From a virus, in the IMG/VR virus record IMGVR_UViG_3300042375_000684: a DNA stretch of 64,000 nt, one strand, 5' to 3'. Position numbers and translations under genes: made by a program. Shown here one piece after another: positions 5,452-63,429 of the stretch. The notes under the pieces were generated by a model. It saw only the letters and a program-made list of their open reading frames with translations. It was not told where the DNA came from and did no database searches. Each line of letters starts with the position of its first letter. The first letter of the stretch is position 1.

Positions 5452-7320
5452 ATGGTTTTTTCTGTAAGCCCATCCGTAACAGTCCGTGAGGTTGATGCTA
5501 CAGCAACAATTCCAGCGATCGCAACTCCTCCTGCTGCAATCGCTGGTGTTTTTAGCTGGGGACCAACTAACGAAAGAATTCTAGTAACTTCTGAAAACGA
5601 GTTAGTTTCTCGTTTTGGGAAACCTACGGATTCTAACTTTGAAACATTCTTTACTGCAGCCGACTTTTTGTCGTATTCAAATGCACTATACGTTACTCGT
5701 GTAACAAGTGATGATGCTGCAATCGCGTCCGGCACATATTTTAATGCAAAACACCCAGGTGCATTAGGTAATTCCGTTGAAGTAGCATATGTAACAAGTT
5801 CCAGTGCATATGGCAATACTGCATTATTTGATACAGACCTAATTGAAAATGTAGATAATTCTGATATTATTGCTATTGGCACAAATACATTACAAATTAT
5901 CACAACAGAAAATGTTTCTGGTATTCTTTCTAATGGTGATATTATTGTAGTAGGTAATAATGATGTTGGTTATCAAAACCTAATAGTTAATACGTATACT
6001 GTTGCATCAGTAGTAGATACAGCAAACACAGCAAACACAGCAGACGATATTACAACATATACTTATACTATAAATCTAAAAAATAGATATTCACTACCAG
6101 TAACATCTTATCTTGATCTAACATATAAGAGATATTGGGGTCTTTCATATTTATTTAGTAATGCACCAACATCAGGTAATATGCACATTGTGGTTACAGA
6201 TAGAGATGGTGATATTACTGGTGTGGCAGATACTATTCTTGAAGTGTATGAAAACGTGTCAAAGACACCATCTGCAAAACTTCAGGATGGGACAACAAAT
6301 TATTATGCAACAGTAATTGAAAACAAATCTGCTTGGATTATTGCTGATAGTACCGATAAATTAGATGGATCTGGAAATCTTTCTGGATATGAAAATCTGG
6401 CTGGAGGTCTCAATGGATCTAATGAGGCATCAATACCGTTTGGTAAAGTTGCACTTGGTTATGATCTTTATAAAGACTCTGCAGATGTTGATATTGCTTT
6501 TGTTCTTCAAGGTAAAGCAGTAAATGCAAATATTTCAAACTATATTGTTCAAAATATTGCCGAAAGAAGAAAAGATTGTGTTGCATTCATTTCACCTACT
6601 GCTGCAGCTGCCGTAGCACCATCTAATCCGATAGATAAGATGAATGCAGTTATTGCATTCAGATCACTTGTTCAAAATTCATCTTACTTCTTCATGGACT
6701 CCGGCTATAAATACCGTTATGATAAGTATAATGACGTATATCGTTGGGTACCATTAAATGGAGATATGGCAGGTCTTTGCTCTCGTATCACTCCATGGGA
6801 ATCACCAGCTGGTTATAAGCGTGGTATCATCAAGAATGTTGTAAAACTTGCTTTTAATCCAAATAAAGAACAACGTGATCAACTATACGGAAATGATATC
6901 AATCCAGTTGTTTCTCAAGTAGGTCAAGGTATCCTTCTATTCGGTGATAAGACTGGTCTTGGAACTGCTACAGGTAGTGCATTCACTCGTATTAACGTGC
7001 GCCGTCTATTCATTACAGTCGAAAAGGCAATTGCAACAACTGCTGCTTCATTCCTATTCGACTTCAATGATGAGTTCACTCAGACACAGTTTAGAAACTC
7101 AGTAGAACCATTCCTAAGAGATATCCAGGGAAGAAGAGGTATCATAGACTTTAGAGTAATTTCCGATTCTACTGTAAATACTCCTGATGTTATTGATAGA
7201 AATACATTTAGAGGAAATATTTTCATCAAACCTAGTAGAACCATTAACTTTATCGAACTTACATTTGTCGCTACTAGAACAGGTGTTGAATTTGATGAAA
7301 TTATCGGCCAGGCTCTTTAA
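5452..7320 (+). CDS. gp18: Tail sheath protein gp18
   Basis: SPSVTVREVD, FMDSGYKYRYDKYND, ESPAGYKRG, RINVRRLF motifs. Confidence 0.97.
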   Translation: MVFSVSPSVTVREVDATATIPAIATPPAAIAGVFSWGPTNERILVTSENELVSRFGKPTDSNFETFFTAADFLSYSNALYVTRVTSDDAAIASGTYFNAKHPGALGNSVEVAYVTSSSAYGNTALFDTDLIENVDNSDIIAIGTNTLQIITTENVSGILSNGDIIVVGNNDVGYQNLIVNTYTVASVVDTANTANTADDITTYTYTINLKNRYSLPVTSYLDLTYKRYWGLSYLFSNAPTSGNMHIVVTDRDGDITGVADTILEVYENVSKTPSAKLQDGTTNYYATVIENKSAWIIADSTDKLDGSGNLSGYENLAGGLNGSNEASIPFGKVALGYDLYKDSADVDIAFVLQGKAVNANISNYIVQNIAERRKDCVAFISPTAAAAVAPSNPIDKMNAVIAFRSLVQNSSYFFMDSGYKYRYDKYNDVYRWVPLNGDMAGLCSRITPWESPAGYKRGIIKNVVKLAFNPNKEQRDQLYGNDINPVVSQVGQGILLFGDKTGLGTATGSAFTRINVRRLFITVEKAIATTAASFLFDFNDEFTQTQFRNSVEPFLRDIQGRRGIIDFRVISDSTVNTPDVIDRNTFRGNIFIKPSRTINFIELTFVATRTGVEFDEIIGQAL

Positions 7321-58258: not shown

Positions 58259-59758
58259 TTAATACCTATCTACAATAACGTCTTCGTACTCTGCTGGTTT
58301 GAGCTCAGACCGCTCACGAACTTGCTCGAACGTAGACTTGTTGAACAGCTCGCCGTTCAGGTATACCAGCTTCAAGAGGTTGTCTTCTGGTGTTACCATT
58401 TCCTCTGGTAGAGTTCTGTATCCGCAAGACCCCAAACCACATTGGCGTACCAGAGCAAGACGACCCTCTTTAGACTTTTTGCCGTGATCGCCAACTGGAT
58501 CCTTGCTGAACCCAACCCAAGGACCGTCAGCAATTCGAATTGCACTGGCCTTCATTGCATATTTCAGAGTATCACGATTCCATGCTTGCAACAGTCCGCC
58601 TCCCATACCAAATGCGATATTCTCTAGACTATAACCTGCCGCAATGATATTGTCAACAAGTACTTGCAGAGTATGTTCGTTCAAACCGTCACCTTGAATA
58701 ACTTTGACAATAGGTGATCCGTCTGGACGTTTTGCAAGAACTTTGTAGCCCTTGCTATTGACAGTGTAGCCAAAGCATTCTGCGAGGATGTCCATGATTT
58801 CAATTGGAACGGTCATCGGATCGCCAGAGTCAGGGCGGACGACCAAAGTGCCACCACTGTCGATCACCAAGTCTTTGAGTTGATTACCCCAAAGTTCACG
58901 AACTGCTTCGTAGATGTTGTAACTATCAGACACGCAGGCATAGATGCTTCCCGCAAAGCTGAACTGCGTAACCATATTGCGGTATGCTTCAACCTCGTTA
59001 GCACGACCCCAGCTGGTAACGGTGCTGTGCTCACTAGCAGGAATGGTCCGAGCAACAGGAGGTGCATCCAGACTAGTAATGTCAGCATCGTAGTATGCAT
59101 ATGCACCAAGAATACCTTCGACTGTATCCGACCCCCAGAAGTTAACCAAGTGACTCATACCACCAAGAACAGCACTTTCAGTTGAGCTTACACCGCGTCC
59201 ACCAAAGTCGTGCAGAGCAAACTTGATCACCAAATTCATCAACACGTCAACGGGAATGTCAGAGGTTTTCACCAGAGCCTTTGCAATGATCTTCTTGAAC
59301 TTACGGCTCTTGGTAGCAACAGTAGAAGGATACCAAACCCCACGCAACAGTGCCATTTCGATGTAGGAGGTCAGCCAGCCAAATCCACTCGTGGTATTTT
59401 TGACCTGCACTTGGACGTTATGAGTTTCCATAACGGTTCCCTCTGGAACGGCAGTGATTTCGAGTGGCAAAAATCCACCAAACTCGTTGAGCACACGTTC
59501 CCAACCTTCACGATTGAAGGGAGCGCCGTATACTTTGAAGATCAGCTCAGCAAAGTTGATGTCCGCCATAGTAATTGGTGTGGTCATGTAATCCATGATC
59601 CAAGCCTGTCCACCAAAGAAGGTACTTTTGTCTTCCCCACCACGAGACTCAATATATGAGCTGATGTGAGTTGTGCCTGGCGGGTATTGTTTAAATTGGG
59701 ATGGTTTGTAACCGTCAGTGCGCAGAATCGCAGTGAGTAGGTGTAGAATGTTTTTCAT
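58259..59758 (-). CDS. nadV: Nicotinamide phosphoribosyltransferase (NAMPT)
   Basis: TDGYKPSQ, LHDFGGRG, IPASEHS, VSDSY, VRPDSG, IQGDG, FGMGGGLLQ. Confidence 0.93.
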   Translation of the reverse strand: MKNILHLLTAILRTDGYKPSQFKQYPPGTTHISSYIESRGGEDKSTFFGGQAWIMDYMTTPITMADINFAELIFKVYGAPFNREGWERVLNEFGGFLPLEITAVPEGTVMETHNVQVQVKNTTSGFGWLTSYIEMALLRGVWYPSTVATKSRKFKKIIAKALVKTSDIPVDVLMNLVIKFALHDFGGRGVSSTESAVLGGMSHLVNFWGSDTVEGILGAYAYYDADITSLDAPPVARTIPASEHSTVTSWGRANEVEAYRNMVTQFSFAGSIYACVSDSYNIYEAVRELWGNQLKDLVIDSGGTLVVRPDSGDPMTVPIEIMDILAECFGYTVNSKGYKVLAKRPDGSPIVKVIQGDGLNEHTLQVLVDNIIAAGYSLENIAFGMGGGLLQAWNRDTLKYAMKASAIRIADGPWVGFSKDPVGDHGKKSKEGRLALVRQCGLGSCGYRTLPEEMVTPEDNLLKLVYLNGELFNKSTFEQVRERSELKPAEYEDVIVDRY

Positions 59759-59807
59759 AATAGAACTCCTCTATTGTTAGTGTTGTTACCAATTCTCTCT
59801 GAACTGG
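59759..59807 (-). ncRNA. Two-hairpin 5' leader motif, copy 1 (nadV)
   Basis: CCAGUUC-AGAGA-GAAUUGG ... AAUAGA-GGAGU-UCUAUU-AUG. Confidence 0.7.
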
Positions 59808-59852
59808 ATTTAGTTTAAATATATACTACTTTACTTGTTTGTCAACTGATTC

Positions 59853-60146
59853 TTATGCGGCTTGATCTTGGGCATCATGCCATTCTACAGTCCATTTTTG
59901 TAATTTTCTGTGGCCTTTTGGCCAATCATTCATGCCAAGGTATGTGACTTGATCACAGCATGGGCATTTAAAGCATACAGTTGGATTACAATCACATTTT
60001 TCATCAAAGTAACCTGGGCGATAGCGTAGATCATTCCAATCAATTTCAAGTAGTGCTTCGCAGCCTTCATTATCGCCACCCCAACCAGTGCAGCGATGTT
60101 GAATGGTCCATTGTTCTTTTGTTTTGCCTAGTTCAAGAATTTTCAT
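59853..60146 (-). CDS. Hypothetical Cys-containing protein
   Basis: ORF track. Confidence 0.6.
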   Translation of the reverse strand: MKILELGKTKEQWTIQHRCTGWGGDNEGCEALLEIDWNDLRYRPGYFDEKCDCNPTVCFKCPCCDQVTYLGMNDWPKGHRKLQKWTVEWHDAQDQAA

Positions 60147-60174
60147 AGCTTCTCCAATACTTCATCTAATTCTT

Positions 60175-60330
60175 TCAGGAAACTCCAGGCGGGATTATCG
60201 CCCGAAGTATGTTTTCATTATCAATATATAATGAAACCAAATAACCTAATTCTTGAAGTTCTCGTTTATTGGCAGAGATATTCAAGACATAATCTGATGC
60301 TGTTAGTTGTACATCCATTTGTTTATCCAA
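60175..60330 (-). CDS. Small hypothetical protein
   Basis: 3' part of track ORF; start uncertain. Confidence 0.4.
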   Translation of the reverse strand: MDKQMDVQLTASDYVLNISANKRELQELGYLVSLYIDNENILRAIIPPGVS

Positions 60331-61387
60331 TGTTAATGAAGTTGTCGATGATATGAAAATGATCTTCGAAGAGCTTCTCTTGTTTGACTTGGTTGAATGG
60401 AACCCAGAACGCTTTTTCAGCATCATCGGAACCTTTGACCTTTGGAAGTTCACCAACACCAAGGTCAATCAAGAATGCCTGTGTGATGGTACGACCACGA
60501 GATGAGCGGTTCGGAGCATCAAAAGTCTTGGACTCTTTGATAGAACCCTTGAGAACGGGAACAGGAACCTTGATTTTTGTTTCCTCTTTCAACTCACGGA
60601 TAGCCCCATCAAGCATAGTTTCATCTTGATTGAGGAACCCGCCAGGCAGCGCCCATAGTCCTTTTCCTGGCATGTCGCCACGTTTCACGAGAAGGATGTG
60701 ACCTGACTGAATAACAACAGAGTCAACAGTCATGAAGGTTGGTGGGAACGGCGCAGATTTCCAAGCTTCCTTGTATTTCTTGACCATATCATATTCTTTA
60801 GAAAGAGTATCCCATGCACCGCCAATTTTGGCATTTTGCATGATAGTATTAGCCATCGCATCATATGAAGGTTTTGGCATTGCGGCAGCAATTTTACTTG
60901 GGGACCCATTTTCACCGAACAACATCTTCCGAATATCAGTAGCATTGATACCGTTAACATCACCAACTTCGACATGGTCCTTCCAACGAGGAAAGATGTT
61001 CAAGTAGTAACTAGTACTGTCCTTCGAATGACCGATAAGACCAACATCTTTTGCATCAGGGACGGTTTCATCAACAATCTTCTGGATCGCGTTGACCCAC
61101 TTGTTGTCGTCATATGGAAAGTCAGAGACTGGAACCACTTTGATGCGAGGTGTCTTGTTTCGACCCTGTGCACCGTCATAAGTGAAGTGCTTTGGTTCAT
61201 TGAAGCAAGCTTCAATCATAGTCTTGCGTTCTTGGAATGTAAAGGGATTTCGGATATTTCGTGCGGCAAAAGAGGAACCGACTACGATTACTACTTCTTT
61301 TGCTTGTTCTAATGCAGCATCAATAACTGCTTTGTGTCCATTGTGAAACGGTTGGAATCTTCCGATAAAAACTAGTGCATCGCGCAT
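60323..61387 (-). CDS. nadM: Bifunctional NMN adenylyltransferase / ADP-ribose Nudix hydrolase
   Basis: IGRFQPFHNGH, RNPFT, INATDIR; Nudix box GGFLNQDETMLDGAIRELKEET. Confidence 0.93.
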   Translation of the reverse strand: MRDALVFIGRFQPFHNGHKAVIDAALEQAKEVVIVVGSSFAARNIRNPFTFQERKTMIEACFNEPKHFTYDGAQGRNKTPRIKVVPVSDFPYDDNKWVNAIQKIVDETVPDAKDVGLIGHSKDSTSYYLNIFPRWKDHVEVGDVNGINATDIRKMLFGENGSPSKIAAAMPKPSYDAMANTIMQNAKIGGAWDTLSKEYDMVKKYKEAWKSAPFPPTFMTVDSVVIQSGHILLVKRGDMPGKGLWALPGGFLNQDETMLDGAIRELKEETKIKVPVPVLKGSIKESKTFDAPNRSSRGRTITQAFLIDLGVGELPKVKGSDDAEKAFWVPFNQVKQEKLFEDHFHIIDNFINIG

Positions 61388-61389
61388 TT

Positions 61390-61433
61390 GCAAAAACTCC
61401 TTTTGCTATATTGAGTGATCCTCTCTGGATCAC
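61390..61433 (-). ncRNA. Two-hairpin 5' leader motif, copy 2 (nadM-Nudix)
   Basis: GUGAUCC-AGAGA-GGAUCAC ... GCAAAA-GGAGU-UUUUGC-aa-AUG. Confidence 0.7.
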
Positions 61434-61438
61434 ATGTT

Positions 61439-61469
61439 TATTTATAATCTATAGTTGGTATTTTGTCAA
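61439..61469 (-). promoter_or_regulatory. Composite early/late promoter
   Basis: TTGACA-17-TATAAA(TA): the -10 hexamer is part of an exact TATAAATA. Confidence 0.7.
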
Positions 61470-61472
61470 CAA

Positions 61473-62114
61473 TTATTTACGACCAGTTGGGCAATTTCGT
61501 TCGGCACCACGTTTCTGGTATGTTTCAGCAATCGCCAATTCATGATTAATTGAGTTACCTTTCAGTGCATACACATCTTTTGAAACACTGATTTTAACAA
61601 ATGTACGAATACCAGGTTGAATGTTTGTATCAACTTTATGCAAGACTCGTTGATCAAGTTTCATGAGGTTCTTATTTGCATAACGGAATTGTTTTGACGG
61701 ATCAGGTTCACATAATTGGTTCATTTCATCTAGTGAATGAACATGATCAGCAGAAAAACTGTGAAGTGAATTGTCACAGAAAAACACTGTGGGATTTTTG
61801 TCAGACCAAATGTAGTTTAGATCACCCGTCATAAAACCATCGCTGTGCCAACCAGGGCGATTGCCAGGTGTTTCGGGTTTGACATAAAGTGTTTTTGCAG
61901 TAATGTAAACATAATCATTGTCCCATTCATCGGCACGATCAAGTTTTACTTTTTCAACTAATGGCAAGAATTGCATTAGATTTGCGGGGATTACGGTATC
62001 AGACATGCCAGGAGTTTTAATTGGACAATACATCCAAAACATCATTTCAGTAGGATCAAGTTCTACCGGACCTAAATTTTCAGGTTGGGTTCCATAAATC
62101 TTATCAGTCGTCAT
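61473..62114 (-). CDS. Putative 2OG-Fe(II) dioxygenase-fold protein
   Basis: PGWHSDG (HxD), distal VLH, RTF; family call by motif only. Confidence 0.55.
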   Translation of the reverse strand: MTTDKIYGTQPENLGPVELDPTEMMFWMYCPIKTPGMSDTVIPANLMQFLPLVEKVKLDRADEWDNDYVYITAKTLYVKPETPGNRPGWHSDGFMTGDLNYIWSDKNPTVFFCDNSLHSFSADHVHSLDEMNQLCEPDPSKQFRYANKNLMKLDQRVLHKVDTNIQPGIRTFVKISVSKDVYALKGNSINHELAIAETYQKRGAERNCPTGRK

Positions 62115-62117
62115 GAT

Positions 62118-62159
62118 GCAAAAACTCCTTTTGCGGTATCAATGATCCTCTCTGGATCA
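62118..62159 (-). ncRNA. Two-hairpin 5' leader motif, copy 3
   Basis: UGAUCC-AGAGA-GGAUCA ... GCAAAA-GGAGU-UUUUGC-auc-AUG; AATAAATA just upstream. Confidence 0.7.
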
Positions 62160-62306
62160 GATGCTTATTTATTAATTTGCTTTACAGATGCGAACCATCC
62201 AACGGTAAAAACCGAATTTTCGGCTTTGACTGACTTTAGCACCTTGAGAAAGAATAAAGTCACGGTCGATATTCATCTTACGTAGAGGCATGTGTTGTTC
62301 CTTTTC

Positions 62307-62349
62307 ACCTTATAGAATCAGTATAAACTATTCAGGTGGTACTGTCAAC
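62307..62349 (-). promoter_or_regulatory. Repeated early promoter cassette (class A)
   Basis: Same repeat. Confidence 0.9.
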
Positions 62350-62653
62350 CCTTCTTTTCACAATCGGGATAAGTACAATGCAAATTATGTAAAGGGCAGT
62401 TACCGTTTTCATCTTTGTTTGGACATATTGACTCTGTTTCTTCTAATAGACTAATGAGTCGTTCAGCACCTGCTTTTGCATCAGCTGCCATTACATCAGG
62501 TGAATATCCAAGCAGATATGCAGCAACCATGGCACCATAAAGGGAAGCAAGAAGATCATCAGCATCTTTACTATCTTCAAGTTGTTGCAGCCATTCCTGT
62601 AGGTGAATGGCTGCATTATTATTGATTTTCTTTACTCGTTCATCTTCACTCAT
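62345..62653 (-). CDS. Hypothetical protein with C-terminal Cys/His cluster
   Basis: CPNKDENGNCPLHNLHCTYPDC. Confidence 0.6.
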   Translation of the reverse strand: MSEDERVKKINNNAAIHLQEWLQQLEDSKDADDLLASLYGAMVAAYLLGYSPDVMAADAKAGAERLISLLEETESICPNKDENGNCPLHNLHCTYPDCEKKG

Positions 62654-63429
62654 TTCACATATCCTACTCTCTGGTCAAGTGTATAGTCACCAAAGAACAC
62701 AAGATCAAGTTCTTGAATTTTAGTTCGTTTAACAAGAACATCAGCATCTGGACGTTTATGTTCTGGTATCTTCATAAGTTCTGCTTGAGTCAAATATGAC
62801 TCAACAGTAACTGGCTTTGCATAAGTGCCATACTTATATTTGTTTGGAAGCTCGGCCCAATCAGTAAAATAGTCAGACTTAAGAAGTGCTTTCATTTCTT
62901 CACCTGATAGACCGTGCATCTTCGAATGACCCACAGTCCAACGAAATAGTGATGAAATACTGTTCTTTCGAGCATCTTGAACACGCCACAAAAGTACGTT
63001 TGATGCTTCGGCAAGGTCAGGAACAGCCCATGCACGGCAGTCAAAGAAAGCAGGTTTATCCATCTTTACACACTCAGAAAGAGTGGCATTAAAATGGAAT
63101 GTTGCCATAGATGCAAGGATCGAGTTGATCTTTGATACTTTACCACCGAACATATATTCAGATGACTTCTCACCTGGTGTGTAGATCAATGTGATTTCGT
63201 CCGATTGTGTATACCCAATACTTGCATGAGTGTACTTGACAAGGTTCATCATAGTGTTGACCATGACACCACCAAGGATATCATCGAATGGCTTCTTGAA
63301 ACCTTTTGTGAATTTACTGAAACCTTTGCCGTCGATCCGAACACAAAGGATCTTATCAATTGGTACATAAGCTTCTGTATATTCGTGTTCGTGTGCTTTC
63401 ATCCTGTCGCCAAATTCATCGTTTTTCAT
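62650..63429 (-). CDS. tRNA(His) guanylyltransferase Thg1-like protein
   Basis: RIDGKGFSKFT, GYTQSDEITL, GKVSKINSILAS, FDCR. Confidence 0.9.
   Translation of the reverse strand: MKNDEFGDRMKAHEHEYTEAYVPIDKILCVRIDGKGFSKFTKGFKKPFDDILGGVMVNTMMNLVKYTHASIGYTQSDEITLIYTPGEKSSEYMFGGKVSKINSILASMATFHFNATLSECVKMDKPAFFDCRAWAVPDLAEASNVLLWRVQDARKNSISSLFRWTVGHSKMHGLSGEEMKALLKSDYFTDWAELPNKYKYGTYAKPVTVESYLTQAELMKIPEHKRPDADVLVKRTKIQELDLVFFGDYTLDQRVGYVK

Follow-up and report, generated by a model that had tools for sequence, protein, structure and literature searches.

A two-hairpin leader RNA precedes NAD salvage genes in phages and bacteria

Introduction

Depletion of nicotinamide adenine dinucleotide (NAD+) is a major bacterial defence against phages, and the gene pair nadV and nadM makes up a phage NAD+-rebuilding pathway, NARP2. 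PnuC together with a NadR-like enzyme forms another phage NAD+ pathway, NARP3 (PMC13464706). The control of these phage NAD genes is not addressed in the literature that our searches found, and the NARP3 paper makes no mention of a leader, a hairpin or a riboswitch (PMC13464706). Here we describe an RNA element found in three 5′ leaders of a 64,000-nucleotide stretch of viral DNA (the window, from IMG/VR record IMGVR_UViG_3300042375_000684), located before nadV, before the bifunctional gene nadM-Nudix and before a gene for a protein of 213 amino acids (aa). The element consists of a first hairpin (hairpin 1) with a five-nucleotide loop, a linker, and a second hairpin (hairpin 2) that carries the Shine-Dalgarno (SD) sequence in its loop.

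Among described leader RNAs, the NAD+-I (nadA motif) and NAD+-II (pnuC motif) riboswitches likewise lie in the leaders of NAD genes, and those of class II are found before pnuC too, with the SD taking part (PMC7749635). These riboswitches have bulged domains and a pseudoknot, whereas the present element has neither. A first-pass annotation of the window, made from the letters alone, had seen no match to either class, and this proved right: the Rfam models of the NAD+ classes do not match at any threshold (none at E ≤ 10 in 59700-62400 or 61375-61445), nor does any other Rfam family (Rfam 15, none at the gathering score in the window). An existing Rfam match, which would have removed the novelty of the element, was thus looked for and not found, and literature searches found no paper describing it.

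A second described system is PyrR, a protein resembling a metabolic enzyme, which recognises a hairpin in leaders belonging to its own pathway. The loop consensus in the Bacillus pyr leaders holds UCCAGAGAGG, and the nadM and 213-aa copies studied here read UCCAGAGAGGAU. The likeness is limited to the loop and two closing pairs in these two copies, and the CC/GG pairs are not conserved in the present family. Furthermore, PyrR acts by transcription attenuation, whereas the present leaders have no terminator, and NadV is a type II phosphoribosyltransferase, unlike the PyrR-like type I enzyme. The model of the PyrR binding site (RF00515, a bulged stem with a purine-rich terminal loop) does not match the 71-nt nadM leader even at E ≤ 10, and membership in that family was rejected on this ground.

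The guanidine-II riboswitch (mini-ykkC) resembles the element in that two short hairpins stand in tandem, both loops are fixed and closed by C-G pairs, the linker is free and the SD is adjacent. It has an ACGR loop twice, whereas the loops of the 94 distinct copies of the present element are A-N-N-G-A (5 nt) and GGAG followed by U, C or A, are not self-complementary and stand in an NAD-salvage context; membership was rejected because the required ACGR tetraloops are absent from these copies. The autogenous operators of MS2 coat protein/replicase, T4/RB69 gene 43 and E. coli thrS likewise consist of a short hairpin, or two, placed at or over the ribosome-binding site, with a free stem and a fixed loop, and in the present element too a dimeric protein could span two hairpins. 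These operators serve one gene of one phage or species, whereas the present element serves several genes of one pathway in many phyla; it has no sequence likeness to them, and its reader is a candidate only. At the DNA level, the Nudix-related repressor NrtR controls nadM-nadV, prs-nadV and pnuC-nadR (PMC2330246). NrtR reads duplex DNA palindromes with conserved arms, whereas the present element is strand-specific with free arms. The element is a new family of a known kind, a putative cis-regulatory leader RNA that is uncatalogued in Rfam.

Results

The first-pass annotation had described one architecture for the three leaders, and the sequences, hairpin scans and minimum free energy (MFE) folds agree with it on the minus strand, on which all genes of the region lie. 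The nadV motif (59807-59759) begins with hairpin 1 at 59807-59789 (arms CCAGUUC/GAAUUGG with one G-U pair, loop AGAGA at 59800-59796), continues with a 13-nt linker (59788-59776) and ends with hairpin 2 at 59775-59759 (AAUAGA/UCUAUU, loop GGAGU at 59769-59765), with the AUG at 59758. The nadM-Nudix motif (61433-61390) has hairpin 1 at 61433-61415 (GUGAUCC/GGAUCAC, loop AGAGA at 61426-61422), an 8-nt linker (61414-61407), hairpin 2 at 61406-61390 (GCAAAA/UUUUGC, loop GGAGU at 61400-61396) and the AUG at 61387. Before the 213-aa gene (62159-62118), hairpin 1 at 62159-62143 pairs UGAUCC with GGAUCA around AGAGA, the linker is again 8 nt (62142-62135), and hairpin 2 at 62134-62118 is the same as that of nadM (GCAAAA/UUUUGC around GGAGU), with the AUG at 62114. 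The common layout is therefore a hairpin 1 of 6-7 bp with AGAGA on a C-G pair, a linker of 8-13 nt and a hairpin 2 of 6 bp, whose GGAGU loop is the SD and which stops 0-3 nt upstream of the AUG. MFE folds reproduce both hairpins in the leaders of nadV (-10.1 kcal/mol), nadM (-15.0 kcal/mol, z -2.5) and the 213-aa gene (-12.6 kcal/mol), and a covariance model described below (R1) scores the three at 52.5 bits (E 6.6e-8), 59.8 bits (E 1.9e-9) and 51.1 bits, respectively.

No T run follows either hairpin on the minus strand in the three leaders, and an intrinsic terminator or attenuator is therefore excluded. On the antisense (plus) strand, hairpin 1 of two leaders (61415-61433 and 62143-62159) scores terminator-like because the A-T-rich box of the promoter supplies a T-rich tail; no plus-strand gene lies nearby.

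We found that the motif is confined to these leaders in the whole IMG/VR record around the window, which spans 137,360 bp (36.8% G+C, estimated 68% complete). An exact scan of both strands gave four hairpins of at least 5 bp around an AGAGA loop, three of which are these leaders, while the fourth has no SD hairpin downstream; a stem of at least 6 bp around a GGAGU loop adjoining a start codon occurs in these three leaders only. The bare word CAGAGAG is not itself enriched in the record (10 observed vs 5.9 expected), and the signal resides in the structure and its position. R1 matches exactly these three leaders in the record at E ≤ 10 and likewise in the window at E ≤ 1, so that the confinement first noticed in the window extends to the record. 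The sequences of window and record differ at positions 6245 and 6255. Megablast of the region against the INPHARED phages gave no match, and the best nadV protein identity among these phages is 52%. The 24 listed sequencing runs that contain the stretch are all lake-water metagenome DNA, with no RNA run listed.

Next we examined relatives of nadV, the 213-aa gene and nadM-Nudix fetched from IMG/VR. The nadM/nadV leaders of the relatives have the same layout with very different stems, hairpin 1 reading for instance UGAGGAC/GUCCUCA, GUAGGAGCC/GGCUCCUAC, GUAUAGUUC/GAACUAUAU and CCAACUC/GAGUUGG, and a strict descriptor of the element gave 61 matches in 1.6 Mb vs 4-13 in shuffled sequences. In a MAFFT alignment of 26 distinct copies, 98% of cells are paired and 12 of the 13 pairs have changed on both sides; the covariation score is 0.997, compared with 0.23 in shuffles and at most 0.15 for slid partners. 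As this set was picked by a descriptor that demands pairing, the count was repeated on leaders chosen only by their distance from the start codon, namely 13 nadM leaders (12 distinct) from one NadM clade with 72-88% protein identity. In these, 97.7% of cells are paired, double changes are found in all five inner pairs of hairpin 1 (5/5), and slid controls are flat; the 13 orthologous leaders have no hairpin 1 arm sequence in common and retain the loop.

Across 94 distinct copies, loop 1 has the consensus A-N-N-G-A (AUAGA 33, AGAGA 23, ACAGA 12, AGUGA 10, AAAGA 8) and is closed by C-G or G-C; stems measure 5-10 bp, except for one of 14 bp, and linkers 1-22 nt. In loop 2, GGAG is followed by U, C or A, the closing A-U pair being invariant, and hairpin 2 ends at most 3 nt away from the start codon or overlaps it by at most 3 nt in 87/94 copies (0-3 nt upstream in 75/94). 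The invariance of both loops, as read from the three leaders, thus holds within this genome and gives way to these looser consensus sequences across the family. Furthermore, position 2 of loop 1 covaries with the closing pair, C-G going with AGAGA/AGUGA and G-C with AUAGA/ACAGA/AAAGA, which may reflect a base triple or merely two lineages.

The annotation had preferred a selected RNA structure to a DNA operator, and stems that covary while an asymmetric loop is kept, in a strand-specific manner, bear this preference out. An operator in which hairpin 1 is a DNA palindrome bound by an NrtR-like or other dimeric repressor would account for an inverted repeat beside promoters and has a precedent in the NrtR operators that precede nadM-nadV in Synechocystis (PMC2330246). 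However, orthologous leaders have wholly different arms around an asymmetric centre that stays fixed and always lies on the sense strand, many copies lie away from promoters, and NadM-Nudix is the sole Nudix protein found in the record, with no second one detected (68% complete; a host factor is possible). Strand asymmetry, free arms and fixed loop therefore exclude a palindromic DNA operator, to which we leave a very small probability.

We then asked which genes carry the element, using R1, built from the 26 distinct copies. Five phage records of 195-382 kb, whole or nearly so, yielded 2-3 R1 matches each at E ≤ 1, and every one of these is in an NAD cluster. Among the fetched phage loci (1.55 Mb), every R1 match at E < 0.01 lies on the gene strand and precedes nadM, nadV, pnuC, the 213-aa gene or its relative in locus L047, or one unknown 120-aa gene beside pnuC; in phage and bacterial loci, all matches at E < 0.8 are on the gene strand. 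The pnuC gene (nicotinamide riboside/nicotinamide mononucleotide (NMN) transporter; PF04973, 2e-37) carries the element in three loci (L087-L089), where a NadR-kinase-like AAA_28 gene lies downstream of it. In two records nadV is 14-40 kb away from nadM, and its own copy is still present (39.0 and 36.2 bits). A looser descriptor is matched by 28-43% of nadM/nadV leaders, compared with 0.9% of random positions and 4.9% of other SD-led open reading frames (ORFs); mismatch-tolerant descriptor searches, which give many chance matches before short ORFs, were used only alongside controls. Among loci fetched with nadV, R1 matches are found in 12/27 with nadM nearby vs 0/19 without nadM. Because R1 matches are confined to NAD clusters, including nadV far from nadM, calling this set of genes a regulon is justified. 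The NAD regulon proposed from three leaders is accordingly found in many genomes, with the same element before nadM, nadV and pnuC, and its occurrence before unrelated genes genome-wide, looked for with R1, was not seen.

In the same three loci, pnuC and the AAA_28 gene are upstream of nadM/nadV (L087:1999-3725, L088:917-3655, L089:867-2903), which places NARP3-like and NARP2 routes in one cluster. An extra leader copy at L088:456-504 precedes the unknown 120-aa gene (MAILKSTTYTCSDGS...) just upstream of pnuC.

The element is also found in bacteria. Eighty bacterial loci fetched with a NadM-Nudix profile were scanned with R1 and the descriptor, and the element was found before nadM and/or nadV in Xanthomonadales (Stenotrophomonas, Xanthomonas, Pseudoxanthomonas, Luteimonas, Lysobacter, Dyella and Ahniella) as well as in Hahella, Microbulbifer, Sulfurovum and other Campylobacterota, and others; the leader of a Xenococcaceae cyanobacterium scores 40.7 bits with R1. 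Some bacterial copies have the AUG inside the 3′ arm of hairpin 2. The descriptor seldom detects the element in Psychrobacter, where R1 nevertheless gives weak matches before nadV. A regulon specific to phages, as the first reading of the window had it, is not what we found, as bacterial chromosomes carry the element too. In a tree of 169 NadM-Nudix proteins the motif is scattered over most large clades and absent from some, for example a jumbo-phage clade, which fits an old element lost repeatedly. A search of whole bacterial genomes with R1 gave a single match, in Hahella, which lies before an acylase-like gene and was dismissed as false (R1 is biased towards phage copies, and only 150 candidates were scored per genome).

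Next we examined the promoter context. A sigma-70-like promoter, TTGACA-16-TATATT (59818-59845, minus strand, 11/12 consensus matches), precedes nadV; its TATATT ends 11 nt upstream of hairpin 1, and transcription would start 4-5 nt upstream of hairpin 1. The nadM promoter, TTGACA-17-TATAAA (61439-61469, minus strand), is overlapped by TATAAATA at 61446-61439, the T4-type late promoter consensus. The T4 late-promoter rule places +1 relative to the TATAAATA box, and the predicted nadM +1 is at 61433, the first base of hairpin 1. Similarly, in 12 related phage nadM leaders hairpin 1 begins at most 7 nt after TATAAATA (2-5 nt in 10/12), that is, at the predicted +1. This position suits a constitutive expression module, in which hairpin 1 would be a 5′-terminal or processing-stop stem-loop against 5′-end-dependent decay and hairpin 2 would merely present the SD, with no signal being read; the relatives that retain hairpin 2 only (L008, L018 and L047) suit it as well. 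However, a protective stem needs no fixed A..GA loop, and in five whole genomes only NAD genes carry the element. Furthermore, the nadV copies of relatives and the bacterial intergenic copies are not at promoters, and a 5′-terminal position is therefore no general property. We consider such a module rather improbable.

The T4-type TATAAATA boxes of this phage and the GGAG exposed in loop 2 also bring to mind a target for RNA-processing enzymes or repressors of phage or host origin, such as the T4 RegB nuclease, which cuts GGAG, RegA or CsrA. Yet the motif is chromosomal in bacteria without such phage proteins, and the GGA that CsrA requires is rare in loop 1. PF10715 and PF01818, searched for RegB and RegA, were not found in the record, a weak argument as the record is 68% complete; control genomes gave no match either. 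Such a target is, in our judgement, very improbable.

The genes served by the three leaders were identified as follows. The nadV gene (58259-59758, minus strand) encodes a nicotinamide phosphoribosyltransferase (NAMPT) of 499 aa (Pfam NAPRTase 7e-47, NAMPT_N 1e-17; phrog_448 3e-142), and nadM-Nudix (60323-61387, minus strand) encodes a bifunctional NMN adenylyltransferase/ADP-ribose pyrophosphatase of 354 aa (Pfam NUDIX 1e-20, CTP_transf_like 1e-12; PDB 2qjo 4.7e-90). The 213-aa protein (61473-62114, minus strand; phrog_1843, unknown function) gave nothing in the Protein Atlas or in a PDB sequence search. Its AlphaFold2 (AF2) model has a pLDDT of 92, almost all of the Foldseek PDB matches listed for it are 2-oxoglutarate (2OG) oxygenases or related Fe(II) oxygenases, and H90-x-D92, H159 and R170 are invariant in 24 homologues, which is the HxD...H...R signature of 2OG-Fe(II) oxygenases. 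The predicted product is thus a 2OG-Fe(II) oxygenase-like protein.

The leader of the 213-aa gene resembles that of nadM so closely that it is almost a copy, and this likeness extends into the A-rich stretch ahead of hairpin 1. The best relative of the protein (L047, 66% identity), also encoded beside nadM and nadV, keeps hairpin 2 only, behind a TATAAATA box, and numerous relatives in G+C-rich phages have no motif. The gene is a lineage-specific recruit to the regulon. An oxygenase of the 213-aa type is found beside or near nadM/nadV in at least three phage lineages (window 61473-62114, minus strand; L047:4001-4633; L012:12664-13263).

Between nadM and nadV, a 97-aa Cys-rich ORF (59853-60146, minus strand) has a zinc-ribbon-like pattern (HRCTGWG...EGC...VCFKCPCC) and no Pfam or PHROG match. 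L089 encodes a counterpart of 54% identity, again between nadM and nadV, and about half of the close relatives have a copy. As a reader of the motif it was rejected, being found in only part of the motif-bearing loci and hence no universal partner. Further upstream on the minus strand, a 39-aa basic ORF (62175-62291) ends just upstream of the 213-aa leader and has its own sigma-70-like promoter, TTGACA-17-TATACT (62320-62348), and a gene of the Thg1-like tRNA-His guanylyltransferase family (PF04446, 1.6e-28) occupies 62650-63429.

Discussion

With the SD in the loop of hairpin 2 and the start codon adjoining or overlapped in 87/94 copies, the leader is a structured element that overlaps the ribosome-binding site, and it probably sets the amount of NAD enzymes translated. 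We infer control at the level of translation, with repression as its direction. We hold it slightly less than evenly probable that the element acts in cis as a translational operator and is read by a protein travelling with the genes, with NadM-Nudix as the leading candidate.

In such an operator, hairpin 1 would be the specific address, combining a free stem sequence with a fixed A-N-N-G-A pentaloop on a C-G or G-C pair, a type of signal that is read by proteins, and hairpin 2 holds the SD GGAG in its loop and the 5′ AA, sometimes with the bacterial AUG, within a marginally stable A-U-rich stem before the start codon. By binding both hairpins, a protein would make hairpin 2 more stable and block access of the 30S subunit, and translation of nadM, nadV and pnuC, here together with the 213-aa gene, would be tied to one signal. 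In this phage the nadM copy would start at the +1 of an early/late promoter pair, and its hairpin 1 would then also cap the 5′ end of the mRNA.

Since the element accompanies the genes in phages and in several bacterial phyla, its reader would have to accompany them too or be universal; what remains is a reader travelling with the genes, a universal reader, or a metabolite. NadM-Nudix is the only protein always at hand, which makes it a candidate reader; among the loci fetched with nadV, R1 matches occurred only where nadM was nearby. Its Nudix domain has a homologue in NrtR, the NAD regulator, where that domain senses ADP-ribose (PMC2330246).

Several points weigh against an operator read by NadM-Nudix. 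Beyond an N-terminal alignment artefact, no residue class of NadM-Nudix separates motif from non-motif lineages, and many NadM-Nudix genes in the tree of 169 proteins have no motif. Only about eight nucleotides are conserved in the element, five of them the SD. The link to nadM is confounded by shared descent and by the way the loci were fetched, and a link of the 213-aa gene to NAD is not evident. Finally, two hairpins with fixed loops and a free linker are also the layout of a known small riboswitch, guanidine-II.

The last point leads to a new riboswitch class, in which an NAD-related metabolite (NAD+, NMN, ADP-ribose, nicotinamide or its riboside) would be enclosed between the two docked loops, so that the SD is hidden or exposed without any protein. 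Such a riboswitch is, in our view, unlikely though a serious contender. A biosynthetic enzyme, a salvage enzyme and a transporter form a regulon typical of riboswitches, the element moves together with its genes through phages and bacterial phyla far apart, no feature of a protein follows its distribution, and guanidine-II combines the same two short fixed-loop hairpins and free linker with an adjacent SD. However, very few nucleotides beyond the SD are conserved, positions 2-3 of loop 1 vary even inside one genome, the linker varies from 1 to 22 nt, and a dinucleotide would find little room in a pocket made of a pentaloop and an SD loop. No complementarity exists between the two loops, and inspection of copies revealed no covarying pseudoknot; a pseudoknot or kissing interaction between loop 1 and hairpin 2 was rejected, as the inspected copies have no consistent complementarity. 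The narrower proposal of a very small new riboswitch that senses an NAD breakdown product or precursor (ADP-ribose, nicotinamide, NMN or NAD+ itself) we regard as doubtful, a little more so than the class as a whole. If true, the phage could turn on NARP2, and its relatives the PnuC/NadR-like NARP3, exactly upon depletion of NAD+ by the host defence.

Whether a protein or a metabolite reads it, a small and widespread leader RNA specific to NAD genes is a direct handle on the control of NARP genes, and it is short enough for probing, binding and reporter tests. The outcome would be a riboswitch of a new class or else a further example of a metabolic enzyme that reads the mRNAs of its own pathway. 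The element is also usable as a marker for further members of the regulon, as it was here for the 2OG-Fe(II) oxygenase-like gene, and it points to unannotated regulation of nadM-nadV in Xanthomonadales and other bacteria.

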